Assembly: GCA_008632985.1 (NCBI GenBank)
Contig: QPGO01000038.1
Location: 397,939 to 461,938, forward strand
Direction of reading: 5' to 3'
Length of the DNA: 64,000 nucleotides
From: Psammoneis japonica
Lineage: Eukaryota
This document shows, piece by piece, positions 3,077 to 57,928 of this stretch. Below the pieces are notes generated by a model. It was given only the letters and a program-made list of their open reading frames with translations. It had not been told where the DNA came from and made no database searches. The translations under genes and the position numbers were made by a program. Numbering within the stretch: the stretch's first letter is position 1; every line of letters begins with the position of its first letter.

Positions 3077-4654
3077 ATGATTGAAAGAAGAAGAAGAAGA
3101 AGCAAGCCGTATTGTCACCCAATGGGATTAGGATGCGCCATCTTTCTTCTTTTTTCTTGCAAGCGCGTCCAATCTCGAACGACGATTGTGATGAAACACC
3201 ATCCAAAAGGTTCCGCTATGCCACATTATGAAGGTATGGCTCAACGCTCACTCACTGAAGTGCATCGCCTCTTAAAGGGTAAGAAGGAAAAAGAAAAGAA
3301 AAATAAGGATGAGAAGAAGAAGACTGAGAAGAAGAAACCTTCGCCGAAGAATCCGAAACAGTCACCAAAGCAATCTCCAAAGCGAACATCAAATCCGCAA
3401 CCTACGGCCAAGAGGGCTGAAAAGCAAAAACCTGCGAAACCCACTCCAAAGCCGACCAATAAAAGAACCTCGACTCCTCAACGAGCGCAAACTCCCGAGC
3501 CTACAAGGAAAAGGACAGGAAGGCCTACTGCGAAACCTACCCAAAAGCCCACTGCGAATCCTACCAAACGACCGCTGTCGACACAGGAAATGCTCACACC
3601 GAATCCAACTCCAAGACGTTCTCCTCCGACACGCAAACCCACAAGAAACCCAACCAGAAGGCCAACACAGAATCCAACTCCACCCCAAGCTAATGATCCA
3701 CCGCCTACGGCATTTCCCGCAGGAGAACCATCTTTGTCTCCATTCTCTGCCCCTACAATAATCACTTCCTATCGACCTTCCACTGTACCTCCATCCGTGA
3801 TCGAAACAGAGCCGCCTTCTGGATCAATAATGTCAACAGATGAAGGAATCTTGCATTTATGTTCCGCTTATCCAGACGAACAAGAGACTTCCTTCAGAAG
3901 ACTTACCATTTCCTATGCAATGCATCTCCAAGCCGACTCTAACCCACGTCTTGTGCTTGACAAAGTACACGACACGTTTCAAACCACTCTCTCATTGTTT
4001 GTTTGTACCTTTGGTTCCTCGGCTGCTCGTAGTTTCAAAGACAGACCAAGGTTTCATTCGGTGGTGTTCACCCCATCTCCATCTTATTCTCCGAAACAAT
4101 GTTCTTTGACTTTTGAGCGGAACGAAGACTGCTATCTTGTAGATACTGAATTTGGCGTGTCCTATGCCGGATCGCCAGTTGCTGACTCCACTCTCGTGAA
4201 TCGACTTGGTCCGTACTTTGTGGCGGAAATGAGTGATTTTGGGCAACTTGAAGCTAGTCACCCAAACATAACTGGTCTTGTGTTTCGTGGTTTTGTTAAC
4301 GTGGACAGTGGTGAATTGAACGAGACAAATGCTACAGAGGAAGGCATGAACTCGAGTGATTCGGATAGCAACTCGGTGGCTATACGTGCGTTGTTAATTG
4401 CAGTAGCCTCCATTGGTGTTGCCCTATCAGTTTTCGTGCTCGTTTATCTTTATCGGAGGAAAGAACACTTCCAACGACAAGCGATTGATTTGGCTGACCA
4501 AATTATTGGTGCAGAAGACCACAGGATGCAAGAAAGTGAGCCCAATCCAGATGTAGTCCAGGAAGTTATGTTTGACAGGTCTGGCGGCGACGTATCCTCA
4601 ATTAGCGACTCGGCATTTGAAGAATCCTCTTCTCACGAAGGGGTTATAACATAG
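3077..4654 (+). CDS. Type I membrane protein: signal-like N-terminus, RxL + Lys-rich block, Pro/Thr/Arg repeats, Cys-containing domain, TM; paralog of 6994..9579
   Basis: 525-aa ORF with HRLLKGKKEKEKK, PT(R/K)xPT repeats and TM ALLIAVASIGVALSVFVLVYLY-RRK; its ~160-aa domain aligns by eye with 6994..9579. Confidence 0.85.
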   Translation: MIERRRRRSKPYCHPMGLGCAIFLLFSCKRVQSRTTIVMKHHPKGSAMPHYEGMAQRSLTEVHRLLKGKKEKEKKNKDEKKKTEKKKPSPKNPKQSPKQSPKRTSNPQPTAKRAEKQKPAKPTPKPTNKRTSTPQRAQTPEPTRKRTGRPTAKPTQKPTANPTKRPLSTQEMLTPNPTPRRSPPTRKPTRNPTRRPTQNPTPPQANDPPPTAFPAGEPSLSPFSAPTIITSYRPSTVPPSVIETEPPSGSIMSTDEGILHLCSAYPDEQETSFRRLTISYAMHLQADSNPRLVLDKVHDTFQTTLSLFVCTFGSSAARSFKDRPRFHSVVFTPSPSYSPKQCSLTFERNEDCYLVDTEFGVSYAGSPVADSTLVNRLGPYFVAEMSDFGQLEASHPNITGLVFRGFVNVDSGELNETNATEEGMNSSDSDSNSVAIRALLIAVASIGVALSVFVLVYLYRRKEHFQRQAIDLADQIIGAEDHRMQESEPNPDVVQEVMFDRSGGDVSSISDSAFEESSSHEGVIT

Positions 4655-6993: not shown

Positions 6994-9579
6994 ATGACGA
7001 GAAGAAGTAGATGCAAATTCCCACTCTGCCTGACTTTGATTCTTCTTTTCTTGTTTGCAAGAACGACTGCCTCGGATCAACATGGTCGGTCCCTTGAAAA
7101 TGAAGAGGGGATGAATTATCACGGGAACAAAAATAAGCAAGCACAAACGATCCACTCGGCAGCGCTTCGAGAAACATCTGTTACTTCCGAACGATCGCTT
7201 GATCCAAGTGCACCGTCTTCGATAACACCTACGATCTCGGCAATACCTTTGACGACAAGAAAAACCTTACCTTCAGCTACAGAATCAATAAAGACGTTGG
7301 CAGGACCGCCAGCTTCTACCTTGAACCCAAGTTCCAAGCCGACGTCATTGCCAAATACTTCTCCGCCAACTCTGTTGCCAAAAACTGCTAGTCCAACCAA
7401 ACAGTTGCCACCAACGACCCAGCCCACCGCGACGACGACTCCTGGCCCAACCAAGCTCGTCACGCCAGATCCGACGTTTGAACCGATAGCGCCACCGACG
7501 AGTGCTCCATTGACATCGAATCCGACGCTTCATGCTGCCCAAGCGACAGAAAGTCCAACCCCGCTCCCATCTTTACCTCCTACGTTTGGTTCTCTACCAA
7601 CTATTCAGCCTACAGCGACTCCAACAGGAGCGCCAACGACAAGATCACCCACCTCTCGTCCATTGGCTGGAGACGGTGTAACTGCTATCCCGAACGCGGC
7701 AAGCCCGACTATACCGCCTGGTTTTGTGACTCCGGAACCAACGCAGATGGCTGTATCAACCCCTCCACCTACAAGCGCCCCAACTGTAGCTCCGTCAACT
7801 CAGCCGCCTGTTTCATTTCCGCCTACTCTTCAAGTTGAAACTGCACCCCCGACTTCAAGCCCAACACCCAGTCCAACGGAGGAGGATACTCCGAATCCAA
7901 CTGTAACACCAACAAGCGCTACTCCTACGCCAACAGAGATACCCCCACCTACATCAGAACCTACACCAAATCTATCACCAGCGCCAACTGTATCACCATT
8001 GACGCCGGTACCAACTACGGCGACGACTCAGAGCCTGACCGCGAGCCCAACAACTGCTAGTCCGGAGCCAACAGCTACTAGCCCTAATCCGACACCAAAT
8101 CCCTCAGCAAGACAGACCGCAAGGCCTTCAAATACCACTCCACGTCCCACCCGAAGGCCTACGCCGCAACCTACACGTCAGCCGACATTGCTTCCTTCAA
8201 GTCCCCAAGATGGGACTGCGTCACCAACGCAACGATCGACCTCAAGACCCAGTTCAAACCCGACTCGGAGGCCAACAGGTCGACCTACCCGCCAGCCAAC
8301 GGCGTCTCCAACTGCCCCCCAGGATAAAATTGTGTCGTCAAACCCAACTCGACGACCAACCCGCAGACCCACTCCAAATCCGACTCGGAGGCCCACACCA
8401 CGACCCACCCGCCAGCCATCGCTGCCTCCTTCTGTGCTCCAAGAAACGCCGCGACCCACAGCAGGGTTATCATTAAATCCAACAAGAAGTCCAACACCTG
8501 ATCCATTCGAGGCTTCATCCAGCCCTACCAAATCTCCCTCGTCGTCACCTCAGCCAACTTTTCGACCATCACAGTCCCCGTCGTCAACACCCGGATCCTC
8601 GGTGGCTCCTACCGTTTCCGTAGTCATTGATGAAGGCCTTGTCTCTTTGTGTCTAAACAACCCTGCAACTGAACAGACAACATCGTCTTCGAGAAGACTG
8701 GAGATTTCCTATGCCATGCGCCTCATTGAAGGATCTGACCCCGAGCGTGTGCTTGAGACTGTACATGACACATTCCAGGCTACATTCTCGGTGTATGTCT
8801 GTAGTTATGGGAAGGTAGAAATGCAGCGTATCAACAATGGCGTTGATTTCCTGTCGTTGGAGTATTCACCATCGCCGTCCTTTTTACCAGCATCGTGTTC
8901 GCTCGGCACTGAAGATTGCTATCTTGTCAACACCGATTTTGGGGTAACGTACGTTGGCGATCCTGTTCTTGATACCGTTTTGGTCACGTCACTCGGGCCA
9001 TACTTTATTGAGCAAATGAGCAATGACAGGCAACTCGAAAAGAGTCAACTCGAAAACAGCCACCCAAATATCACCGATCTCGAGTTTCGTGGTTTTGTTA
9101 ATGTAGGCAGTACAAACTCGGGCCCTCCTGAAGCCAACAAAAATGGTTCTTCCCAAGATGATGACGGTCCAGGCACTATTGGGATTCTGCTGATTACCAT
9201 TGCCTGTACAGGGGCGATCGGGGTGCTTATTGGTTTTATTGTTCTTCTCCGCCGTCAACAAACAGCTGCTAGGCGAGATTATGATGACCTTGATATATTG
9301 AACGAGCTTACTATTTGCAACGAGCTTAATGCTCGCAACGAGCCCAGTGAACCCCAACAAGCGGTTGAGGGATTTGAAGGGACGATTGAAGTGCCCCGTG
9401 ACCCACCTGAAGACATATCTTCCTTGGGCGAATCCGGGCTAAAACCACAGTCTATAGCCAGCATTATTGACGGAGACACGCCCAAAGAGAATGGGAATGA
9501 TCACAACGTTCAAGACGACGCAGCTGATGGTGCGGAGGATTTGAGAGCATCTTCCGAGGATGCAAATAAAATAGAATAA
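6994..9579 (+). CDS. Mucin-like type I membrane protein (signal peptide, RSL, long Pro/Thr/Ser stalk, Cys domain, TM)
   Basis: 861-aa ORF with signal peptide, ~450 aa of PT repeats, EDCYLVNTDFGV..LGPYF..HPNITDLEFRGFVNV and TM IGILLITIACTGAIGVLIGFIVLL-RR. Confidence 0.87.
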   Translation: MTRRSRCKFPLCLTLILLFLFARTTASDQHGRSLENEEGMNYHGNKNKQAQTIHSAALRETSVTSERSLDPSAPSSITPTISAIPLTTRKTLPSATESIKTLAGPPASTLNPSSKPTSLPNTSPPTLLPKTASPTKQLPPTTQPTATTTPGPTKLVTPDPTFEPIAPPTSAPLTSNPTLHAAQATESPTPLPSLPPTFGSLPTIQPTATPTGAPTTRSPTSRPLAGDGVTAIPNAASPTIPPGFVTPEPTQMAVSTPPPTSAPTVAPSTQPPVSFPPTLQVETAPPTSSPTPSPTEEDTPNPTVTPTSATPTPTEIPPPTSEPTPNLSPAPTVSPLTPVPTTATTQSLTASPTTASPEPTATSPNPTPNPSARQTARPSNTTPRPTRRPTPQPTRQPTLLPSSPQDGTASPTQRSTSRPSSNPTRRPTGRPTRQPTASPTAPQDKIVSSNPTRRPTRRPTPNPTRRPTPRPTRQPSLPPSVLQETPRPTAGLSLNPTRSPTPDPFEASSSPTKSPSSSPQPTFRPSQSPSSTPGSSVAPTVSVVIDEGLVSLCLNNPATEQTTSSSRRLEISYAMRLIEGSDPERVLETVHDTFQATFSVYVCSYGKVEMQRINNGVDFLSLEYSPSPSFLPASCSLGTEDCYLVNTDFGVTYVGDPVLDTVLVTSLGPYFIEQMSNDRQLEKSQLENSHPNITDLEFRGFVNVGSTNSGPPEANKNGSSQDDDGPGTIGILLITIACTGAIGVLIGFIVLLRRQQTAARRDYDDLDILNELTICNELNARNEPSEPQQAVEGFEGTIEVPRDPPEDISSLGESGLKPQSIASIIDGDTPKENGNDHNVQDDAADGAEDLRASSEDANKIE

Positions 9580-13109: not shown

Positions 13110-14750
13110 CTCACACCAGTTCGGCTCACATGTCTGGTCATTTTGGCGAGCACACATTGGCAGGTCTTCCCTCCGCGCCATTCTCGTTCCCTGCTCTAGC
13201 TCTGGCAGCTAGTGGCAGGGCCCAACACAATTGTGCAGTGCACCATGTTGGTTTGGCATGAATTGAATGATGATTGTGCATTGATTGCAGGAAGAACTTC
13301 ACTTGGTTGGAAATTTTCTCACTGTCATGAGAACATTCACCGCAGCCATGGTGGTTGAGTGGTGGAAGAGTCTGCTTTAATTTCAGAAACTGTTTTTGCC
13401 AACACACCCATTGTTGCCCATTGCATTTTTTGTTGAACACTTGTGTTGTGTGACATTTGGCTGCATTCCAGAGAGCTGGCCAAAACAGTGGTGCTGACCA
13501 GATTTTAGAATGGGTGCAGTGGCACATTCTCTGGTGGCTCCAATTGACCAATGCAGAACACCAAGTGCAACAGCAACAACAAAGCTCAAATGCACACCGC
13601 CAAAACACTCCACTTGGGCTGCACAACAATTGTGCCACAGAGAGAGCAGGCCAAGCCAGCAACTGAGTTTCAGAGCAGGTGTGAGAAAAAATGCTTTCTC
13701 TGGCAACTGCAGCTAACAAAGGCAAAACATCAAGTGCAACACAGCAAAATGATCATTTTGTTGGCACCCAGCAAGTGAACATTGTCAAAGCACACAAAAA
13801 TCAAGCAGAGATGTTCCAACCCAGGAGTTCACAAAATGTGCAAGTGTGTCTTGTGCTAATCAACACAATGCAAACAAACAATTGGGTGGTCAAAGCTGGA
13901 GAATGAAATTGCAAATGAGAGATTGTGCCAGGAACAAGCACCTCACAACAAATGAGCATTTTGTGAGCACCGCGCAAATTCGTTCAAAGGCAATGATGAC
14001 AAACAGCACTGTCTGCAAAGCAAGAAACAAGGAGGGTTGGCTTTGCAAAATGGTGATGGCAGCCTGTTGCATGGTGCTCAGCTCTGCTGTGTTGCGCTTG
14101 TGTGGCCACTTGTTGGTGTCACAAAGCAAAAGCTGGAACACCCTCAAATGGCCTCTCACGCTTTTTCTCTTGTGACAAAATGACAACCTTTTCCCATGAG
14201 GACAAGCACAAAACAGACATCTTCATTTGTTTTGCTGGAGCAACAAAAATGCTCAGCCATTGAAAGCGAATGAAGTCGCCCTCTGCGTGGGGCGCGGGGC
14301 CAGAGCCAGCTCGCACACACCTGTGGAAAGCTGAAGAGCTCGAGAAATCTTTGAGTGTCTTTGCTCCCCACATCCATGAATCCTCTCTGTTGGGAGGAAC
14401 ACAAAACTGCATTCACATTTGCCATGGTCAAAAAGTGCTGAAAACAATGACTTTTGTGCGGGGAGAGCGACAGAGCTCTGCTCGAAGGCTCCCAGACTGT
14501 GCCCCTCTGGCGGCAAGTGAGTCAGGAGGAGGCAGCATTTCTGAGCATTTTGGGGCACCACCCTGCAAGCTCCCACAGTTTTTTTTTAATTGTTTGGAAA
14601 CTCACAGTGTCCTTTCATTGGCTGCGACTTCAGTGTCAGATTCAGAATGGAGCTGGAGCCGCGCTTCCAGTTGTCGCCACTGCCAGTGGTCGGTCCTGAT
14701 GGGTCGCACGCGTCTGCTCGCTCGTGCGGTCGTTTTCGCTCACCAGGGAA
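13110..14750. other. TpA/CpG-depleted, TpG/CpA-rich degenerate tract A
   Basis: About 7 TA dinucleotides in ~1.6 kb by manual count, all YTAR; few CG in 13200-14250; translations within the tract lack Tyr and are Cys/His rich. Confidence 0.9.
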
Positions 14751-15140
14751 GGCATAAGGGATCGTTTGTCATAAGTCATTTCGCTTTAGACATATGTATG
14801 TCTACATGAAATGCCAGTTTCAGCATAAGTATTTTAAATCATATATCACCTTTTCCGCGAATGAGAATAATGATCATGTCTTGCTGTTTTTCGGAATGAC
14901 TTCAGGACATTTCATTCGTTAAGTAAATACTAAATTACGTCGTGGCGATAGTGCGAATGTGACAAATTAGTCAGTCACAATAAAAAATGATGTTGTGATC
15001 ATTTATCAAACGAGAATTCGAGAGTCTTTCGAGACCACTTCGTCAAATCACTTCTCGTTTCTCTCACAAAAAAACAAAATCATAAAGAGAGAACACTTAC
15101 GAGAAACCCATAACGTTGACTCTTCACTTTTTAGACAACC

Positions 15141-16468
15141 ATGCGTTTCCTTTCCCTTGCTTTCCTGTTGGCCGCTTGCGCCATTGGCGTCAGTGGATCG
15201 GTCGCTGAGGACAACAATGCCTCAGTAAGTGCTACATGAAAAACGGAGTCTTTCTCATATTGTATTATCCCCGTTCTCATTTGCATTCCTTGCTCGCCTA
15301 GCAGGTGCAGCTTGAAGACCTATATGAAGGTGGTCCTGTTGAAGAAGAACAAGATGGCGCTGTCGTCTTGGAAGGAGACGAGCAAGAGCATCGGAATTTA
15401 CGACGTACGCGACCCTCTCAAAGGAATAGAGGTGTCTTGCCCAAAGGTGTCAGAAAAGTGACGAATTCCGATGGCACGAGCACCTATATAATGAGTGTTT
15501 ATGTCTGGTACTGGTTGGGGGCGAAAGACTTGTGCATCAATCCTATCGAGTGGTGCAACTCTAAAGTTATCGAAGAGTTTGAATTCGCAAATTTGTACCA
15601 AGACGAACCTGATGCGAGTGCGGTCTACGCAATGGTGGAAGCTGGGGCCACCTGCTGGGCACAGGCTAAGTCCCTCACAAGGCTGAACGCCATGGTTCTT
15701 GGGCAAGCCGAACTCACCGTCAACCAAATAGGACGTATCGGGCCAATTCCAGAAGTCAATTTCAAATCGAAGTTGCACACGTGTACACTGTCTGTGGCAT
15801 TCGCCCGAAGTGAGTCCGAAGCTGCAGCTTTCTCCCAAGGGACAGCTGGTGCAGCGGTTGAACCGAATGCAATGTGCCAAAACCTCCCGCGTAATCACAG
15901 GTGGATCAGGCATCGTATGTGTACCGAAGGATATGGGGAAGTGGAAGCTACTGGCGAGGCTGATGCTGTCAGCACCTCTTCCGCTTTTTCCCGTTCGCTT
16001 GCAGAGTCCAGAAATTCTCAGCTAGTAAGCGTGATATCCAAAGGCAGGAGTATCAATTTCTTTGAGGCTGTTGTGGTAGGAGGAGCGTCGAGCTTCACTC
16101 AGTCCAGAGCCAAAACGGTTACTTCTGCCATCACAGACGTCGTCGCCGATGCAGATGGTTACACTTGGATTCAAAATTGCATAGAGTGGCTGGTGGATTT
16201 CTGCGGTAGCCACCCGTTCCCTTGGTGCAAGCCAGTTAAAATCGACGAGTATTGTAGAGATGCAGAAGCGGAGGCCTATACCAGGGTCAGCGCCAAGGCC
16301 GACGCTTTTTCCAAGGCTGTTGCGGCATCATTCGGAAACCTCGAAGTTTCAGTTGCATTGAACGCGTATTTGAAACGCAACGAAATTACGGGTGCAATTG
16401 ACATGGGCTTGAACAAGGATTCCGGTTTTTCTGCAGGAGTCGTCACCACCTGTAGAGCTAAGACCTAG
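15141..16468 (+). CDS. Secreted Ala/Ser-rich Cys-containing protein of unknown function; exons 15141-15224 and 15305-16468
   Basis: Exon 1 MRFLSLAFLLAACAIGVSG is a signal peptide; phase-0 intron gtaagt..gcag (80 nt); acidic pro-region ending RNLR. Confidence 0.85.
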
Positions 16469-17359
16469 AAAGAACGATGGAATGCGTTGAGCGAACAGGG
16501 GCGATGAGGTCGTCTTTTCGCTGGGTGTTGAACGATTGTTTGGAAGTGCATGTTTAGTGGAGATCATTAGTAAAAGATGGAGTTACTCAAACGGTCTCAT
16601 CGTGAGTGACACAAGTTGATGGGAGAAGATGGCTTGAATATTGTCTCGCAAATTGATATTACGTAGTTTAGCAAGTATTTGTCTGTGTTCAGTAGTGAAG
16701 CTAAACTTAAAACTCTAGAGTATTGATAACCTTAGGATCTGATTGTGGGCAGTCCCGATCCAACGACCGCAACAACCCCACAGCGACGATGGCGATGGTG
16801 TTTGTTTGCTGTGGGGGAGTGTGTGGAGGCGCCGATGAGATGCGAAGGGCTGCAACATTCTAGAGGTGATTGCTGGGTGACTGTAGGAAGGAATCTCCAT
16901 ACCTGTGATACCGTATTTCATGGCAAGGAGGATCGAATGGAAATAGAGCAGTCCTGGCACTCTATGTTTACTCTCTAGTAGCTGCTCTAGAGTAACTACT
17001 CTCTAGATGGTAGAGGCTCTTATTGGAGAGTAGAACACCTTCACTTTATCAACCGTATACCGGTACGTCGTCCGGAACCACGATTCACAACCGCAGTAGA
17101 GGTGATCACGGGAATAGATACATCGACTGGCATAATGAATATGATCATAATTTCCACGATTGAACAGCTCACACAAATCCCGGATCGGGCAAGATTTGGC
17201 TCCAATGAAGCTGCACCTTCGACAAAAGAAACTGTTCGGCAACTCTTTGCACCAACAAGAGTCCCATCCTTTACAATGCCATGCCTCTTTGACAATCGCT
17301 TTTTCAAGAGATGTGTTGAGAGGGAAGTGCGCGACATGCAACATTCGTTTGCCCCGCCG

Positions 17360-18400
17360 ACGATGACAATCATTGAAACATTGATGCTCCTTGTGTGGTG
17401 CATCATTGTCACATTGACTTCGCTGCCACACTTGGTCCTGCATGAGGAAAATGTGTTTAAAGCAACACAGGATGGCGATGCAACCAGGGTGCGAAGCAAG
17501 CAATCTCGGCATTCAAGCCGTGTCTTGCAGTGGCAGCGGCAAGAAGGGTGGCAAGAAGGGTGGCAGTGGTGGCAAGAAGGCTGGCAGCGCCAGCAACAAG
17601 GAAGGGTGCATCACCGTGCCCTCTGCGACAGCGGCACCGACAACTGGTCCAACGCCAAAATTTGCCCTTGCACCTCCATTGACAGACCCGATTTGAGTGA
17701 CCTCATCGCCGTCACAACGTCCAACGTCTTTGCCGACACCTCCTCCAACACCGCCACCGTCACCTCGTCCTGGTCCTCAGCCAACACCACAGCCATCACC
17801 TCATCCCACTCCTCAGCCAACACCACAGCCATCCCCAACTCTGACCACAAGGCCCGCACCCAACCCTGCATGCCCTCCAATGCCTGGACCAACAACACCT
17901 CCCCCTGCAATGCCGATTGTGCCACTGATGCCTTCGCCATTGAGCATTTGAACCTAACTGCCAACTCCTCAACTGTCGCTTCCTCCACTGACATGTCCTC
18001 ACACTTTAAATCCAACAGAAATGCCAGTGCCCCCACCAGTGCTGCTGCTGCCAACAAAGCAACCGACTGCCCCTCCAACTCCAGCACCGATGCCTCCACC
18101 AACTCCAGCACCGATGCCTCTGCCAACTCCACCTCAAACAATGCAACCAACACCCCCACCAAATCTAGCACCATCACCACCACCCACAAAAGAGAGCCAA
18201 CAGCTCCTCCAACACCACAGCCAACCCCACAACCAATGACGGAACCAACGTCCAGGCCTGCAAGCGCTCCAACCAATGCTCCGACGGGGGTTTCTGACAC
18301 AATCTCCTTCAAAAGCACCATCCAAATCACCTTCTGCAGCACCGAGTGACATGCCGTCATGGTTGCCTTCCTTCTCATGGAAGATTCTCGTTGCATCTCA
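17360..18400 (+). pseudogene. Decayed silaffin/mucin-like cell-wall protein gene (RxL, GKKGGKKG, Pro/Thr repeats)
   Basis: Hydrophobic N-terminus, SRVL, SGSGKKGGKKGGSGGKKAG, then PT repeats across frameshifts with Met/Leu at expected Thr/Pro positions. Confidence 0.7.
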
Positions 18401-19310
18401 TGACAGCTTGGATTTGGGATGCGCGCAACACAAATGGTGATGCCTGGCATGATGATGTTGTTGTTTGATTTTCTCAAGGCAAGTGCAGCTGAGTGGCTGA
18501 AGGAAAAAAGGAAAGGACAAAAATCACACCACACATGATGATGCTCAGCAGTGGAGCAACAGGTGTTGGAGGACAATCTTGGGATTTTTGGCCAGCTTCG
18601 TTGGATTGAGAAGTGAGCCCAAATGGAGCAGCCATGTCAAGCCATGCAGGGGTGAGGAAAGCACTCATGATGCTGGAGCAACAGAGCTGCAATGCTGAAG
18701 GAGGACAAAAGAGCTCATCCTCAAAGTGCTGCTGCTCCACCTGTGGATTGAACTCACAAATGCTGATGCCAGATCAGGCAAGAGGCTTGTTGTAGATTTT
18801 CAGATTCTGTGCACAAAATCACAGAACCTTTCATGCATGGCAAATGGCAGCAACAAAAGGCCAAACACGATGGGGGGTTGCTTCACCCAGACATTCAAAT
18901 CCATCAACTCTGATGTCAGTGACAAAATCAGGGATGCATCATTGAAGATTCAAGGTTGGTGAGTTGCATCACCATTTTTTGAATGATTTCATCATTTGCA
19001 CATTTGATTGAGCCCCACCCTCCTGTGCCATCTGTTGACAGGGGGTGGACAATCCTGAAGACTTGCAGAAATGGAGAAGGAATGGGAGCAGCTGAAGCAA
19101 CAAGCTGGGGCTGCAGAGACAGACACCAACATGGATGGCTTTTTGTTGGTGGGAGATGCACCCAACTCAGGCTCCACAAGTGATTCTCAAGGTTCTAGAA
19201 GAGACACAATGGAACATCAAGGATCATCATTGACTTTTGCTGCTGTCGAGCAACTGCCATCACTGTCACTCAACATTGTGATGGGTTCAAACCAAGATGT
19301 CTCCCATCAT

Positions 19311-19557
19311 TCTGATGCACCAGCTCCAGAAGGAATGAACATGGAGATGCCAGCATCCAACTGCAGTGCACAACTTGAACAGCAGAAACAAATCCTGACA
19401 TTGGCACAGTGGCGCGCACTTCAATGCAGATGCCAAATGCACTTGACCAAGAATCTTGTGGAGTCAAGCCTCAACATGCAAGTGGCTTCTTCAGATGCAT
19501 TGGCTCCAGAAGGAATGCACATGGAGAAAACAGCATCAAACTGTGCAGCGCACAATG
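19311..19557 (+). repeat. Diverged ~65-bp direct repeat pair, 180-bp period
   Basis: tctgatgcaccagctccagaaggaatgaacatggaga (19311) versus tcagatgcattggctccagaaggaatgcacatggaga (19491). Confidence 0.85.
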
Positions 19558-21189
19558 ACCTGGCACCACTCTTGCTGCTGCATTAGAAAGAAACACCAAC
19601 AGTGGCAGTGGCACACATTTCAACAATGATGCCAAATGCACATGGCCAACTGTCTCACACCATTTTGCATGTTTCTTGTGTGGAGTTCAGACTCAAGAAT
19701 CAAACAACTTCTGATGATGGCAATGAGCACCACACAGACACACCCAGTGACAAGATCACAGGAAATCCCAAATTGCCACCTCAAGCTGCTTTGGAATCAA
19801 CAAAGTCGCTGGCATCCAACTGCCATGACATCCAGCTGTAGAAGCCACTGGCAACAACTCTGTGCTGCCATGCATGAGGCAACCATGAGTCAGCAAACTT
19901 GCCAGCAGCACATGCTTTGAGTGTTTTAGAAGGGTTGCAATGCCAAAACAAATTTGCAACAAAATGATGGCAAGCAAGCCTGTCAAAGACCCAGAGAAGG
20001 GGTGTCTTCCAAGTCCAGCAATGCCTGCACATCTGTGCAGAAATTGCCAGAAATGCAGACAGATTGTCTCTGCAGATCCTGCGTGTTCTGTGCACGCTTG
20101 CTGTTCAACAGTGCATTGATTTTACAACAGGCTGCAAATTGGATTTTGTCTTGTTCATGAGCAACATTGTTTGCACCATGAGGTGCTGGGGTTTTGTGTG
20201 CCAAATTGTTGGGTTCTGTGACTGTGTGGTTTCTGTGCAGGTGCCGCACACCATTTTGTTCCACATGTTGGTCTGCCCATCCATCCATCACTTCTGTCAA
20301 TTGTGTTTGTGCAGTGGCTGTGCTGCCCCAAAAGTCCTTTTTCTCATTTGTTGTTGCTGGCCATTGTTGCAGCAGACATTGCCTGCCATGAACATGCAAG
20401 AGCTCTGGCACAGCCACACACATGTGATTGCTGCTGGCTGCCATTGTGCCCATGTCTCCAGAGGTGGGAGAAGTGGACAAGGGGAGCCACAACACCAAGG
20501 CAGTGGCTGCATCTCTTCAACTCCTTTTTGAAGAATTTTCAGCGGACAGATGATGGATGCTTGGCTCCTCATGATGCAGACCCCTCTTCATTTCAGGACC
20601 AACGACCACCAATGCTGTTGAAGCCTGTGTCAAACTTTCTGAACACCTTGCAGCTGCCTGAGCAAGATGCCACAATGGACTTTTAACCTGAAAACATTGG
20701 TGATGCCATGGATGAAAGCAGAAAAAAAAGAACGAATGCCCTGACAAAACATCTGAGGGCAATGATGAACAGAAACAAAACAGAGCCAGACAATGAACCA
20801 TCAACAATGCCAGAGCATGTGGCGCACACTTGCCTTGTCAGTGTGGTTGATTTTGTGTGCTGGCCAAGGCAACACCAAGCCAGGTGAGAAAGTTCCTTGG
20901 CACTTGCTTTGCCAATGCAAGGTCAAAAAACCTGGCATTCTTGGAGAAGCAGCAACATGCAAGGTGACTGTGCTGCAGGAATTGAAGCCTCAAACACTGC
21001 AAACAAAAGCAACACATGAACAACACCCACCAATCTGATTTGCACACTGGCGCCCATTGTCATGACCATTTTGTGTTGCAAGCAAAGCCATGGTTGGGGC
21101 CCAGTCATTCATGGAGTCAGCACTTGAGAGGGTCAAGGACAGAAGTGACACAGGAGAAAGCAAAGCTGTGTGTGCTTTTTGGTCAGTGA

Positions 21190-21430
21190 GTCAGTCTTTG
21201 GACAATTCACTTTGGGCATTGACCGATGGTGAGCTTGCCCAACTGGCCAATGATGAGCTTTCAAAAATTGGGTTGGTGGAGACCAATCAGCTGTGGATGG
21301 AGTGGTGCACACAGGGTTCTGCAGGCTTGTCCTGTCTTTTGTGAAACCACCGAGAGGCCATTGAGATGATCCATGAATGTGTCGCCACATCGTTCACCAG
21401 TCTTCAGACCACAGGATGGGATGGTGGTCA
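21190..21430 (+). pseudogene. Fragment of the C-terminus of a bacterial-type FAD-dependent oxidoreductase (protoporphyrinogen-oxidase-like, PRK07208-type)
   Basis: LWALTDGELAQLANDELSKIGLV..VDGVV..RVLQACPV..IHECV..LQTTGWDG matches the recalled family pattern LW..SDEEL..LA..EL..IGL...VDG.VVRVPKAYPV..IREY...LQTIGRNG. Confidence 0.65.
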
Positions 21431-22005
21431 GGGTGCCTCCTTTCAAGCCTCTGCCTCCATCTCCACAAAGCTGTCCAACCAACAGACAAAACGGCAGACA
21501 CACCCGGGCTTGGTGCCCACAGCAGCTCTCAGTCGTGTGCATGGAGATCTCCTCTGGCTGACGGGGAAGCTGAGCCGTGTCCCAAGCCACGCAGTTGCTT
21601 CAGCTGCAGACCCGGTCCTCCGGCGTGGTATCCGAAATCATGGGCTGTTTCCCAGTGCCGGAAGTGCCCCCCGCCCCGGCTCATCATGAAGACCGGCTAC
21701 ACCCGCTGCCCTTCCTCTGGAAGATGCCGGGCGAAAACCCAGGCAGAGATTTTGCATTGAGCATTTTAGAACTCAAATCGACCGTGGTTCGGCAAAAACA
21801 GTCAGTTGAAAATGTAATGACACATTATAAAGCACCAATTAAAAAGCAATTGCGGCTACAACAAACCGACAACCGCAACATACAACACACAACATTGTGT
21901 GCTTTCTTTGGTTGACAGCACACCGGGGACATTAGTCCGACTAGTTCTTCATAGCACAAACTGAACCATCCCTCGGTCAACCAAGGGCACCATCCGCGCG
22001 TGGTT

Positions 22006-24471
22006 TCACATCTTATCCCAAACAAGAACTGGACAGAAGACACCTCTCTTTGCATGGACTGGAATACAATCTGAACACCTTGAAGGATGCGCCTTCACAC
22101 CTTTAGCTTTACGCACGGTGAAAGTATCCTGTGAAGGTTTCTGCGCAAGGGACGCGACCGTTTCGCTTGACAAACTCCCTGCCCAGACATAGACTTCATC
22201 AATGAGTCCTTCAAAGTTTTCATGTTTTGAGAGGGCAGGGTCGGTATAATTCAGGTTGGTACTGTAACCCAAGCCACCAACACTAACGGCGCCTGAGAGG
22301 GCAAAGAATAAATAACTGTCTTTTCCTTCGACATGCGTTGGGACCTGCTGCCCATTCACATACAGCTGGACTTCCGAGAGTCGACAATTGTTTCTTGGCA
22401 TAGAAACGGCCACGTGTTGCCACGCATTGGTAGCCAAGTTCAAGCTCTTGTCAATTGGAACCAGCTTCATGTTAGATACAGTTGATTTTGCATAAACCAC
22501 AGGGACGCCCTCATCTAATGTGAGAGTGAAAACGAGATTCCTGTACCTGAGGTTCCCGTACCTCGCCTCTCCAAAATATATTTTCAAGATGATGCCATAG
22601 TGAAGTAAAATCTGGTTGCGCGAGGAGAGTGGGGTCTTGAACCAGAGTGCATAGGATACTGCGTCACCTCCACTGTGGGGACCACGTCTGTATGATGATA
22701 TCAAGCAGACAACGTTATGCATCAGGATTTATCATCCGCACACGTTCTGATTAAAACTGAAGTAGGAGCGAATCTCTTCACTTACCCATGAATAGCAACA
22801 CAACTGCTAGATTTGAACTCCGCTGCCTTTCCCTTGATGCCATCATCTCGAAGGACAACATCGCCAACTTGCGCATCATATGTTTCTATATAAGACAACA
22901 CGACGGCAACCGCAGAAAAGGTTAGAGACAAGAATGCAGATGTTGCAGAAGACGTCAGGTAATACTTACGGCCGTATGCGCCCGTATTTTGGAAAGAGTC
23001 CCAACATGTTGTGCCTCGTATAGTGATCTTACGTTGTACAATTGTTTCCTTGTACTCATCATGCCGCAATGCTAGAACCGGTCGATCCGACAAATTAAAA
23101 AGCTCGTCAAATGAAAAGTGAATCATTGGTTGGCTCCGGTCAAGGAGTTTTAAGGATCCCTTTGATTCGATCCTAGTCTTGCCTCCCGACTTGTCGATAA
23201 TCAATTCTCCATAGAATTCATAGTTATTATTTTGTGATTTCGTTTCACTCCAATTTCACTGTACTGAGTGAACTTGATCACATCATTTGAAACGTCAACC
23301 GTGATAAAATTCTGAGCTAGAAGTCCTCTCGACACCACTTGAACAGCATTGGATTGGTCGTCTTTGGTAGCAGTATTCGCGTGGACCTAGGAGTACAAAA
23401 ATATGAAGATTGGTATCAGGTAAGAAATTCAGGTTCTTTGCAATAGAATGGTGAACTTACTTCTCCTGCTAAATATACGTCAACGTTATAGTCTCGCATC
23501 GCCTGGAAGAAGCCAGACGATTCGGCTCCATCCATAAACTGAACGCTGCATTGTATTTTCCCTACGGGTTGTTAGTATCGGCAAATGGGCCTGCACAAAG
23601 ATATGCTTGATGGTAGCATCCTTACGTGCTTCGCGCAGGACGTTCTTAAACCACTTCAAGTGTTCACCGGACACGTTGCACGTCACTGTCCCTTCTCCTC
23701 CTTGACCTTCGCGCAACCAATGAAAATCTTCGTCTAGCTGTTCAAAGGCGTCCACAGTCACGAACAGCACATTCTTATGCCGATAAGCATAGGATGTGTT
23801 CTCGTAGAGAGTCCCAATGGGATGGGAGCTGGCAGCTAATTATCACAAAGAAGAAGTGGAGACAAGAGATGAGACAGAAGCGAGAGACCAGAATAAGCAT
23901 TTTCATTCTTCTGCAAAGACACGTACTTCCGATGTTTCGACGACGAAACTGCCCGTCTGCGTCGCGGTTGAATCCCTTGGTAAAGGCGAAAGCCTGGTAC
24001 TTCATTTGTACCTCTCTCACCCTTCACCCAAGGATTCCCACCAAGCTCATGATCACCCACAGCCATCAAAAGTTTGGAAAATCCGGCCTGTTTAAATGCA
24101 AAGTTCATTCCTTGGTAGCATCGTTCTCCAGCTAGGTGCACAGACTGATGCGCCGTTTTTACGTTAAGCACATCTTGAGTTTCCTGTTTGTACCACGTTC
24201 CGCCGTTCGAGTCACCGGATTAAACCACTAATTCTCCTCCGTAATTTTTGTGGATGTACTTTGTGTTTTCACGTGTCGGGAGGTGACGTTGAAATGATTT
24301 GGGATCGTCCTCTACAATCCAAATCGGGTGCTTTACGAATGGCTCTACACTATGCCAATCCGCAATTACAATGAAACGCCATGGATCTTCGCTCTGAACC
24401 TGCCAGCAAAATGTTGAGAGGAATAAGAGTGTCGTTGAAATGGAGAAGAACATTGTGCAACAATTCCTCAT
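22006..24471 (-). CDS. Secreted calcineurin-like metallophosphoesterase + C-terminal LamG/concanavalin-A-like domain (multi-exon, several frameshifts)
   Basis: Signal peptide, RFIVIADWH, MAVGDHELG, FVQAHLP; LamG WQHVAVS..LYVNG..FEGLIDEVYVW; intron about 23388-23460. Confidence 0.75.
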
Positions 24472-56743: not shown

Positions 56744-57928
56744 TTACACAACACCGTCGGCCCTTAAGTTCCCCTGAATAAATTTCGGTTCCTCCATTGT
56801 GTCAGGGCTTTTTCGTGAAAACGTCACAGTCGGGAGCAATCCCATTTCATCTTGGGCATAGCACAAGTACTGAAGAAAAGTTTTGGACATTTCAAATGGT
56901 TGGTACAGAAATGGGTGCATTTCATCAATAAGAATACAGGGTTGATCTGCTCCGCGAGCTTCGGCAACGCCAAACATGCGTTCTTCGAACCCAAAGGTCA
57001 AAGTGATGGCCTAGAGCCACGAAGCACATTAGTGATTTCCCACAGCATGTTTGATACTTCTTCTTCATAGTAGAGTGCAACATCAGCAACGGTTGTCGGT
57101 TCCGATCGAACAGCTCCTACTAAATTAAAAACGGCATCCAAGACTGTTTGCTCCCACTGCAAGAATCGTTTCGAGGCATAAGAGTGAGGGCCTGAAGAAA
57201 AGAATACAATTGGCGTTGGCATATGCATCACCTATTGTATACTCACCATAGTCGCTTCCATTCCCTGTAGAAACCAGTCTTGCATCGAATAGCGTTTGAT
57301 TCTAGTCGATTTTCAATAGCTCCGCACCATTTCCCGCATGCTGCACACTCTCCGGCCCACTTTTCGCTCCCATCTCCAGCAGTGCCAAGATTCACAGAGG
57401 TATCTTCATCAGAGTACCAGAAACTTTAATACCTGGTATGAGAACTTGCGTCATGGAGTCCCGAGCATACCCAAAGTCTTTTAGGACAGCTTCAATGTTT
57501 CCGCATTCCAATCCGCCAGAAAAGAATACTAAATCTTCTCGGCGAGATTTTAACCCCTCGGGCAGATTTTTGAGATACTCCTTTAGTTGAGTGGGAGGGA
57601 TTGTAATGTAGATTGGGAAAGATCCACTGGCATCAGCTGGAATGTCCTGATCCGGCGTCAGAACCATGTCATCGCCTTGACCCATGCGGACAAGAGCGTC
57701 TGCTACGGTTGTCGGTCCTTCCAAAGGCTTGACAATGACACAAGGTCCATCTTTTGCTTTTTCAATCTCTTGCTTTCCTGACTGTAAGAACGCTTGATAC
57801 TCCATCGTCGCTCTGTTGTCAGACCATGTTGCCTGCAACTGACTAGTGCTGGAGGCGGTCCAACCCGCCGCGGTTGATGCGGGCGAAAATCCAGTAGCCT
57901 CTTGCAACAGAAACGCCGCGGAAANCAT
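56744..57928 (-). CDS. Plastid-targeted ketopantoate-reductase-like protein (At1g16080-like family); intron ~57157-57246, frameshifts, N at 57925
   Basis: ATG-F-SP presequence; PIYI, R.DLVF, GKW, WE..V.....LVGA, TV.DV...Y..EV and F..EER. Confidence 0.6.

Follow-up and report, generated by a model that had tools for sequence, protein, structure and literature searches.

A relic of a bacterial-type oxidoreductase gene in a TA-erased island of the diatom Psammoneis japonica

A stretch of 64,000 nucleotides (nt) from the diatom Psammoneis japonica (GenBank assembly GCA_008632985.1, contig QPGO01000038.1, positions 397,939 to 461,938 of the forward strand), hereafter the window, carries at positions 21201-21425 the decayed remains of an oxidoreductase gene. 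The evidence argues strongly that this relic is a dead scrap of a bacterial-type gene lying in an island of DNA rewritten by two context-specific transition processes, A:T to G:C at TpA and C to T at CpG. The scrap, most like cyanobacterial genes, would lie in the diatom chromosome, at the right end of an intergenic island measuring 4.6 kb. The first process, turning TA into TG or CA, would have run near to saturation and about five times faster when a pyrimidine (Y) follows the adenine (TAY); the second, separate one would be the ordinary decay of methylated cytosine, far advanced only in the core of the island. Both would have acted on this island (island 2) and on another one (island 1) located 2.5 kb upstream. 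A preliminary description of the window had derived two rules, A>G at TAY on either strand and CpG>TpG, from six codons of the relic. This description was partly supported: the direction of change and both rules were right, and the relic proved to be genuine but small, and partly over-read as a witness, the main weight being carried by the surrounding island.

Composition of the TA-erased islands

Island 2 (17200-21780, 4581 nt) contained 15 TA, 84 CG, 469 TG, and 564 CA dinucleotides, where the background density of the window predicted about 185 TA and about 255 CG; the TA background was taken from the rest of the window (40.4 TA per kb). Island 1 (13200-14700) showed, over a counted stretch of 1601 nt (13150-14750), 7 TA, 34 CG, 167 TG, and 182 CA, with about 65 TA expected, and both islands together held 22 TA versus about 250 expected. 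Between 18 and 21 kb, the observed/expected ratio was 0.03-0.06 for TA, 0.09-0.25 for CG, and about 2 (1.8-2.2) for TG/CA. The longest run free of TA (945 nt, 20684-21629) lies in island 2 and encloses the relic, the maximum outside the islands being 171 nt. The borders of the islands, near 13200, 14700, 17200, and 21770, were sharp to about 100 nt, and the flanking open reading frames (ORFs) had normal TA. The composition of the tract, together with the conserved Tyr and Arg codons lost from the relic (see below), bore out the direction of mutation given in the preliminary description, from TA to TG/CA and from CG to TG/CA.

Dinucleotide counts also differed along island 2. In its core (18400-21500) CpG was nearly gone too, at 0-3 per 100 nt. 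The left part (17300-18400) contained 0-1 TA and 1-8 CpG per 100 nt, and carried Pro/Thr/Ser-rich repeat coding debris with spurious long ORFs on both strands; the right edge (21500-21770) contained 0-2 TA and 5-8 CpG per 100 nt at 63-64% G+C, and matched no protein family. Since the loss of TA reached the CpG-rich margins (17300-18400 and 21500-21700) and that of CpG was confined to 18400-21500, two processes are indicated. When dinucleotides were classed by their purine or pyrimidine flanks, a TA deficit of 218 plus a CG deficit of 233 (450.5) stood against a TG plus CA excess of 480.5, and the two sides matched in each class; the missing TA and CG became TG and CA, with their flanks unchanged. 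Contigs assembled from a public sequencing run, at depth 62-73, were identical to the window over 13359-14255, 17247-18637, and 20899-22500 and differed from it once over 19033-20674, which indicated that the islands are no assembly slip.

The preference for TAY drew its support from the tract as a whole and not from the relic, through the flanks of the surviving TA and the strand choice of the products. Within 13200-14700 and 17250-21600, 18 TA survive, and 14 of them (78%) are YTAR (R, purine), compared with 16.7% in the background (P 2e-8); this class is the only one with TAY on neither strand. Survival was 36% for YTAR, 3% for YTAY, 3.5% for RTAR, and 0 of about 73 for RTAY, values that fit a TAY rate about 6 times that of TAR. 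Regarding the products, the excess was 173 for YTGY plus RCAR versus 82 for YCAY plus RTGR, about 5:1 if CpG decay splits evenly between the product classes. TAY was favoured over TAR roughly 5-fold.

Several other features of the islands were recorded. The long ORFs found on both strands (415 and 321 residues) in the TA-free part at 17102-18576 look like artefacts of missing TAA and TAG stops; the debris in this part, with periods of 12 and 36 nt, resembles the mucin-like parts of ORFs 3077-4654 and 6994-9579. At 17283-18091 a second set of contigs differed by TG versus CA (17694-17695), TG versus CG (17698 and 18091), and CG versus CA (17726), among 11 of 724 differences listed; such differences would be expected for two copies or alleles converted independently. 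At 20516-21183 contig depth rose to 95-107 from about 65, with joints 20603>20941 and 20928>21123, which suggests a second, rearranged copy elsewhere in the genome. Diverged direct repeats of about 170-200 nt were located within the islands (19270-19670 and 13480-13850), with 76-83% identity over the best 44-54 nt, and were missed by Tandem Repeats Finder. A count of TG-versus-CA sites between these repeats was dropped, since once aligned they were too few and too gapped.

Identity of the relic and fate of its codons

Profile and frameshift-aware alignments identified 21201-21425 (plus strand, 225 nt) as what is left of a PRK07208-type NAD(P)/FAD-dependent oxidoreductase gene (NF005548/NF005545; amino-oxidase fold PF01593), now broken by frameshifts. 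NCBIfam model NF005548 (PRK07208.1-4) matched the read-through of 21090-21500 collinearly, over profile positions 353-429 of 488 (E 7.8e-5), with 21.4 bits, short of the curated whole-protein cut-off of 389 bits; two sister models in NCBIfam matched the same read-through. A family sample was obtained by scanning genome contigs with a degenerate pattern for the family motif HRYNNQDH, which lies outside the relic; out of 120 loci returned, the 75 with an ORF of at least 430 residues were kept and 45 incomplete loci were left out. A hidden Markov model (HMM) built from these 75 ORFs scored the relic, read in one frame, at 21.1 bits (E 4.9e-9 at Z=1), and a frameshift-aware codon alignment to it reached 48.8 bits over 21201-21425 (profile columns 382-455 of 524), compared with 18.9 bits elsewhere in the island, 18.6 for the reverse complement, and 20.0 for the reversed sequence. 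Tested in this way (48.8 versus 18.6-20.0 bits), the homology proposed in the preliminary description was real, the family pattern given there being close to the true consensus, and on these alignments we consider it secure. In a search of Atlas features, 26 of 30 matches fell in amino-oxidase clusters (top score 0.96). The C-terminal block of the family, W..sD.eL...a.EL..lGl...v.dG.VvR.pKAYPVYd..Y......I..yl...nL...GRNG, was recognisable and collinear in the relic, and is also the block shared with intact PRK07208-type proteins.

About 74 of about 480 residues are left, and the reading frame is broken, with frame changes near 21292, 21308, and 21347 and a stop codon (TGA, 21342) in the frame of the first block. 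According to the frameshift-aware alignment, the first block (21201-21293), with ..LWALTDGELAQLANDELSKIGLVETNQL, is in the frame of ORF 21090-21344. The middle block (21293-21347) runs in two other frames, with VDGVV at 21293-21307 and HRVLQACPVFCET at 21310-21348, and holds codons 21319 and 21328. The last block (21348-21425), HREAIEMIHECVAT-FTSLQTTGWDG, returns to the first frame, includes one extra codon at 21390, and holds codons 21348, 21372, 21378, 21411, and 21417. The segment RVLQACPVF (21313-21339) is one base out of frame with respect to LWALTDGELAQLANDELSKIGL upstream and IEMIHECVATSFTSLQTTGWDG downstream. The 225 nt contain 0 TA, 4 CG, 28 TG, and 22 CA. The rest of the protein, including the N-terminal GxGxxG FAD-binding fold, was not found outside 21201-21425, neither by hmmsearch --max in six frames of 19000-22000 nor by alignment over 17200-21700; over these same spans, the N-terminal 380 and the C-terminal 70 residues of the oxidoreductase were undetectable near the relic, and the HRYNNQDH block of the family is absent from it.

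Other searches returned nothing that bears on the relic. Pfam gave no match in it or in the six-frame read-throughs of either island, a sequence search of solved structures retrieved nothing relevant, a word-indexed homologue search with the 84-residue ORF had no match, and tblastn against plasmids yielded only chance matches. An Ensifer plasmid match was rejected as an unrelated ORF of 1016 residues; the NF005548 matches in that plasmid record were only of the N-terminal Rossmann type and under the cut-off. The lone phmmer match of the 137-residue read-through among 1.84 billion representatives, P0003, was an unrelated repeat protein with MerR-type matches and was considered spurious. A hypermutation-aware alignment, in which any TG or CA may revert, was uninformative (controls 44-157 versus 175 on the real strand).

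In order to place the relic, its identity to family members was determined. Against the 75 diverse members the median was 22 of 74 columns, the top one being the cyanobacterial locus L060 with 30 of 74. A nearest-clade set was then formed by the best 120 of 7988 proteins retrieved with the L060 region matching the relic, and all those among the 120 that carry an organism name are cyanobacterial. Identities to this set ranged from 24 to 31 over the 74 columns (median 27), and the relic has residues typical of the cyanobacterial-type clade (Val416, Arg432, Thr444, Gln449, and Thr450). The closest intact homologues found, cyanobacterial members, share 30-31 of 74 columns with the relic (about 41% identity). 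The two measures of placement were split: identity medians favour the cyanobacterial clade (27 versus 22 of 74), and column-frequency likelihood does not (-291.7 versus -255.1). Based on these comparisons, the relic is tentatively closest to cyanobacterial members. No eukaryotic or closer copy was found, including in a scan of metagenome contigs with the relic, and a scan of the viral collection found the family at 1 locus only. That locus (L128, 5001-5507), on the sole contig of the collection with a member of the oxidoreductase family, showed 56% identity to the first sequence of the query alignment.

The six codons on which the preliminary description relied are located where it had placed them (21319 CTG, 21328 TGT, 21372 CAT, 21378 TGT, 21411 ACA, and 21417 TGG), in two frames: 21319 and 21328 in that of 21310-21347, and the other four in that of 21348-21425. 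The ancestral residues proposed for them differed in firmness. Tyr at 21328 (column 424) is firm, being present in 74 of the 75 diverse and 120 of the 120 nearest-clade proteins, with Cys in none, and gives TAT>TGT. Arg at 21417 (column 453) is equally firm (75/75 and 120/120), CGG>TGG being a transition and AGG>TGG an alternative transversion. Pro at 21319 (column 421) has moderate support (45/75 and 95/120; Leu in 1/75 and 4/120), as does Tyr at 21378 (column 441), where the nearest clade has 82 Tyr and 38 Phe among 120 and the diverse set has 29 Trp, 20 Tyr, and 13 Phe among 75. Arg at 21372 (column 439) is ambiguous: it is found in 58 of the 75 diverse proteins, but the nearest 120 have 108 Gln and 7 Arg, and if Gln was ancestral the change to CAT would be a transversion. 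Ile>Thr at 21411 (column 451) did not hold. This column has 51 Val, 19 Ile, and 2 Thr among the 75 and 42 Thr, 40 Val, and 38 Ile among the 120, and the nearest homologue, L060, already carries Thr (LQTTGRNG), a finding that the preliminary description had itself named as refuting; judging from these residues, Thr at 21411 is probably ancestral.

The preliminary description overlooked another three changes of rule type: Asp>Asn at 21204, C-GAT>C-AAT across the codon border (Asp in 72/75 and 115/120), Tyr>His at 21348, TAC>CAC (Tyr in 71/75 and 120/120), and Ala>Val at 21276, GCG>GTG (Ala in 101/120). The near-invariant Tyr columns 424, 427, and 431 (74/75, 74/75, and 71/75; 120/120 each) now read TGT (Cys), TTT (Phe), and CAC (His), TAT>TTT at 21337 being a transversion. 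Since three Tyr fixed across bacteria cannot be encoded without TA, these codons, lying in a TA-free run, show the direction of change. For the TAY rule, which the preliminary description had taken from it, the relic was uninformative: TAT>TGT at 21328 fits it, TAC>CAC at 21348 does not, and 21337 changed by transversion. In the relic, the two processes would show at Tyr codons as TAT>TGT (Cys) and TAC>CAC (His), at Arg as CGG>TGG (Trp), and at Asp as C-GAT>C-AAT (Asn); a change of Pro to Leu (CCG>CTG) and another Tyr>Cys are probable.

Weight of the relic and competing explanations

That two rules account for all six changes is true of a selected subset. Columns conserved in at least 75% of the homologues of each reference set were scored. 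In the diverse set, 12 of 23 such columns were kept in the relic and 11 had changed (5 rule-type, 2 other transitions, 3 transversions, and 1 two-step change), and in the nearest clade 23 of 46 were kept and 23 had changed (6 rule-type, 4 other transitions, 10 transversions, and 3 multi-step changes). Under a context-free process (kappa 1-4) with the ancestral composition of 13 ORFs of the window, 5-11% of replacement changes are expected to be rule-type. The rule-type changes exceeded this expectation, at 5 of 10 single-step changes (P 7e-5 to 0.003) or 6 of 20 (P 4e-4 to 0.018). Among measures of reversion, the mean column-frequency shift alone favoured the rule-type ones (-0.72 versus -2.51, P 0.004). 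By itself, the relic illustrates the direction of change and is no proof of it; as far as its residues can tell, it modestly supports that direction.

Several points weigh against the reading of two processes acting in place. With CpG transitions 10 times faster, the expected share of rule-type changes rises to 25-43% and the excess disappears, and TA-type changes alone amount to 2 of 10 or 2 of 20 (P 0.02-0.24). Reversions that restore the commonest family residue, counted per opportunity on the present, TG/CA-rich sequence, were 6 of 46 for rule-type changes, 6 of 45 for other transitions, and 23 of 233 for transversions. There are 5-14 single-step changes at conserved sites outside both rules, with 1-3 further sites needing at least two changes, and Tyr>His at 21348 (CTAC>CCAC) runs counter to the TAY rule. 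The relic is short and old, and its ancestral codons are reconstructed from a nearest intact homologue that is only about 41% identical. The expected counts for the tract assume that its original composition was that of the genes of the window, the public run that confirmed the sequence may itself have been the source of the assembly, and the processes are read from end states and composition, the enzyme being putative.

Ordinary pseudogene decay with CpG methylation would attribute the poverty in TA to a genome-wide under-representation of TpA (observed/expected 0.54) and the fit to the rules to selective reading; the absence of a per-opportunity excess of rule-type reversions in the relic, and their unremarkable share when CpG transitions are 10 times faster, speak for this account. 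However, it is already contradicted by the tract statistics, namely TA ratios of 0.03-0.06, borders of about 100 nt, a TA-free run of 945 nt versus at most 171 nt elsewhere, a gain in TG/CA equal to the loss of TA plus CG in each flank class, 78% of the surviving TA in YTAR, and zones that are both TA-free and CpG-rich, and we give it very little credence. We find it just as hard to accept that the island was imported from a virus, a bacterium, or another genome already poor in TA and CG, with no mutation in place. The bacterial-type family of the relic would suit an import, and the sole precedent, the Bigelowiella preprint discussed below, concerns integrated viral DNA, but the relatives of the relic retain the three Tyr (TAY) and the Arg lost here, and a source without TA would be unable to encode tyrosine. 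In addition, Pfam detected no viral or transposon domain in six-frame read-throughs, the family occurred at 1 locus only of the viral collection, and the island also carries debris like the Pro/Thr-rich genes of the window. The least probable account is an artefact of sequencing or polishing, by which TA and CG in heavily modified DNA were misread as TG or CA. Base modifications can give systematic miscalls on some platforms; nevertheless, across pieces of 0.9-1.6 kb, k-mer contigs with a depth of 62-73 show 0-1 differences from the islands, the relic also has frameshifts and many substitutions outside the rules, and the neighbouring genes are intact.

Two other explanations concern the chemistry. 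Hyperediting of double-stranded transcripts by an ADAR-like enzyme, followed by reverse transcription and reinsertion, is highly improbable. ADAR favours a U 5' of the edited A, according to the discussion section of the Bigelowiella preprint (bioRxiv 10.64898/2026.01.13.699255), and the 5' T of the islands agrees with this. The affected DNA, however, is a sharp-bordered intergenic block of unrelated scraps with no retroelement domain. ADAR prefers 5' U and 3' G at the edited A, and TAR, with its 3' purine, is the context spared in the islands; to our knowledge, ADARs are confined to animals. More serious, though still rather unlikely, is a loss of TpA from the thymine side (T>C), through oxidation or modification of T (of the 5-hydroxymethyluracil type) and mispairing with G, or through error-prone repair at TpA. 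TA is self-complementary, so that composition looks alike whether A>G occurred on one strand or T>C on its partner. In dinoflagellates, 5-hydroxymethyluracil takes the place of T, with a preference for TpA and TpC. The flank rule reads simply as A then Y, whereas from the thymine side it becomes T after R, and the data fit both equally.

The first process of the two-process reading would be an enzyme-driven mutator of silent or foreign DNA, most likely deaminating adenine in DNA, of a kind observed in action in Bigelowiella natans; in its behaviour the CpG process resembles the normal decay of methylated cytosine, the methylation being putative. A broader proposal is put forward only tentatively, and we hold it to be possible rather than probable: diatoms may run a chromatin-directed mutator that deaminates adenine of DNA at TpA, distinct from 5-methylcytosine decay, preferring TAY about fivefold over TAR, TadA/ADAT-like and not ADAR-like, and aimed at silent single-copy DNA, bacterial-type scraps included, rather than at repeats as such; together with the Bigelowiella case, it might represent a widespread genome defence of SAR-clade (Stramenopiles, Alveolata, and Rhizaria) algae.

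Comparison with known systems and significance

Full-text searching of the literature retrieved one description of such a process, the B. natans preprint, and none for diatoms. In mutation-accumulation lines of B. natans, two integrated viral regions had gained 231 new mutations, of which 230 were A>G or T>C, each of these at TpA, and the rate was about 1000 times that of the genome; the targets were integrated giant-virus and virophage DNA, one of them confirmed as single-copy, and an ADAT2-like adenine deaminase was proposed (Mettrop et al., bioRxiv 10.64898/2026.01.13.699255). The main text of that preprint makes no use of the words trinucleotide, flanking, CpG, or diatom. As far as this text allows the comparison, both systems share A:T>G:C changes at TpA yielding TpG/CpA, bounded regions beside normal genes, a single-copy target, and a long-term composition low in TpA and high in CpA plus TpG that extends to scraps of non-eukaryotic origin. 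They differ in the host, a diatom here and a chlorarachniophyte there, and in degree, TA observed/expected being 0.03-0.06 here and Rho 0.45 in their viral insert. In the islands, unlike in B. natans, no viral or transposon domain was found, CpG decay is overlaid in the core, and TAY is preferred about 5-fold over TAR; moreover, the process is read from composition here, whereas there it was watched in mutation-accumulation lines. The diatom case represents a signature of the same type in a different lineage, where it has reached saturation, lies under CpG decay, and shows a flank preference.

Repeat-induced point mutation (RIP), known from Neurospora and other ascomycetes, turns CpA into TpA, raises TpA, and needs duplicated DNA. 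Like RIP, the process in the islands consists of dinucleotide-specific transitions that saturate bounded stretches and ruin reading frames. Its chemistry and outcome are opposite, with TpA observed/expected at 0.03-0.06 and CpA/TpG at 1.8-2.2, and an island at single-copy depth was converted while an adjoining multi-copy segment was untouched. Diatom transposons are known to be CpG-methylated, and decay of methylated CpG (CG>TG/CA) covers Arg>Trp (21417), Asp>Asn (21204), probably Pro>Leu, and the CpG-poor core at 18.4-21.5 kb; however, it leaves unexplained the loss of TA, which extends over CpG-rich margins. In the substrates of the tRNA adenosine deaminases TadA, from which DNA base editors have been derived, and ADAT2-ADAT3, the target A follows U or T (U33-A34, in the anticodon loop), and the substrate of bacterial TadA is UAC, which matches the TAY preference. 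In contrast, the substrates of eukaryotic ADAT2/3 mostly have a purine after A34, and action of such enzymes on algal chromosomal DNA is unproven. Given the UAC substrate of TadA and the 3' G preference of ADAR, the TAY preference leans to a putative TadA/ADAT-like enzyme.

Targeted hypermutation of DNA from A:T to G:C has hardly been described, and the diatom window shows its signature at saturation. The rule of TAY over TAR could help to identify the enzyme, and the relic ties the direction of change to an ancient family with Tyr and Arg fixed across bacteria. Should it serve as a defence, the process would bear on how diatoms silence foreign and mobile DNA, on genome annotation, with spurious long ORFs arising where TAA and TAG cannot occur, and on the search for natural DNA adenine deaminases.

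The islands are split by an unconverted segment (14700-17200) that contains ORF 15305-16468 and has, by dinucleotide counts, normal TA and CG. The summed contig depth in this segment (14838-16841) was 216-584 versus about 62-81 in its flanks, which points to several related copies elsewhere. Its ORF (387 residues) matched no Pfam or PHROG family, and no terminal repeats bounding the 14.7-17.2 kb segment were found. The depth of the islands was 62-107, like that of the single-copy flanks, with the adjoining multi-copy part (14838-16841) unconverted; ancient copies may have diverged past 80% likeness. No viral or transposon domain was detected in the islands by Pfam in six-frame read-throughs, and no paralogue of island DNA occurred among the ORFs of the window. 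Besides the relic, the islands hold Pro/Thr/Ser-rich debris like the genes at 3077-4654 and 6994-9579, plus diverged internal repeats. Repetition in itself seems not to be what triggers the process; the silent or foreign status of the DNA is a plausible trigger.

On the right, island 2 is limited by a host ORF on the minus strand (22006-22722) that encodes a concanavalin-A-like/laminin-G domain and whose TA and CG are normal. The long ORFs of the window code for WD40, laminin-G-like, and GLUG-motif proteins, and the genes beside the islands are intact. The named homologues of an S28 peptidase encoded in the window are all from diatoms, Amphora, Cyclotella, Mayamaea, Seminavis, and Bacillariaceae among them. 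ORFs 3077-4654 and 6994-9579 share a Pro/Thr-rich region that precedes a similar C-terminal domain (..ISYAM.L......P..VL..VHDTFQ...S..VC..), together with a membrane anchor, and look like a local gene pair. The window contains a single N, at 57925.

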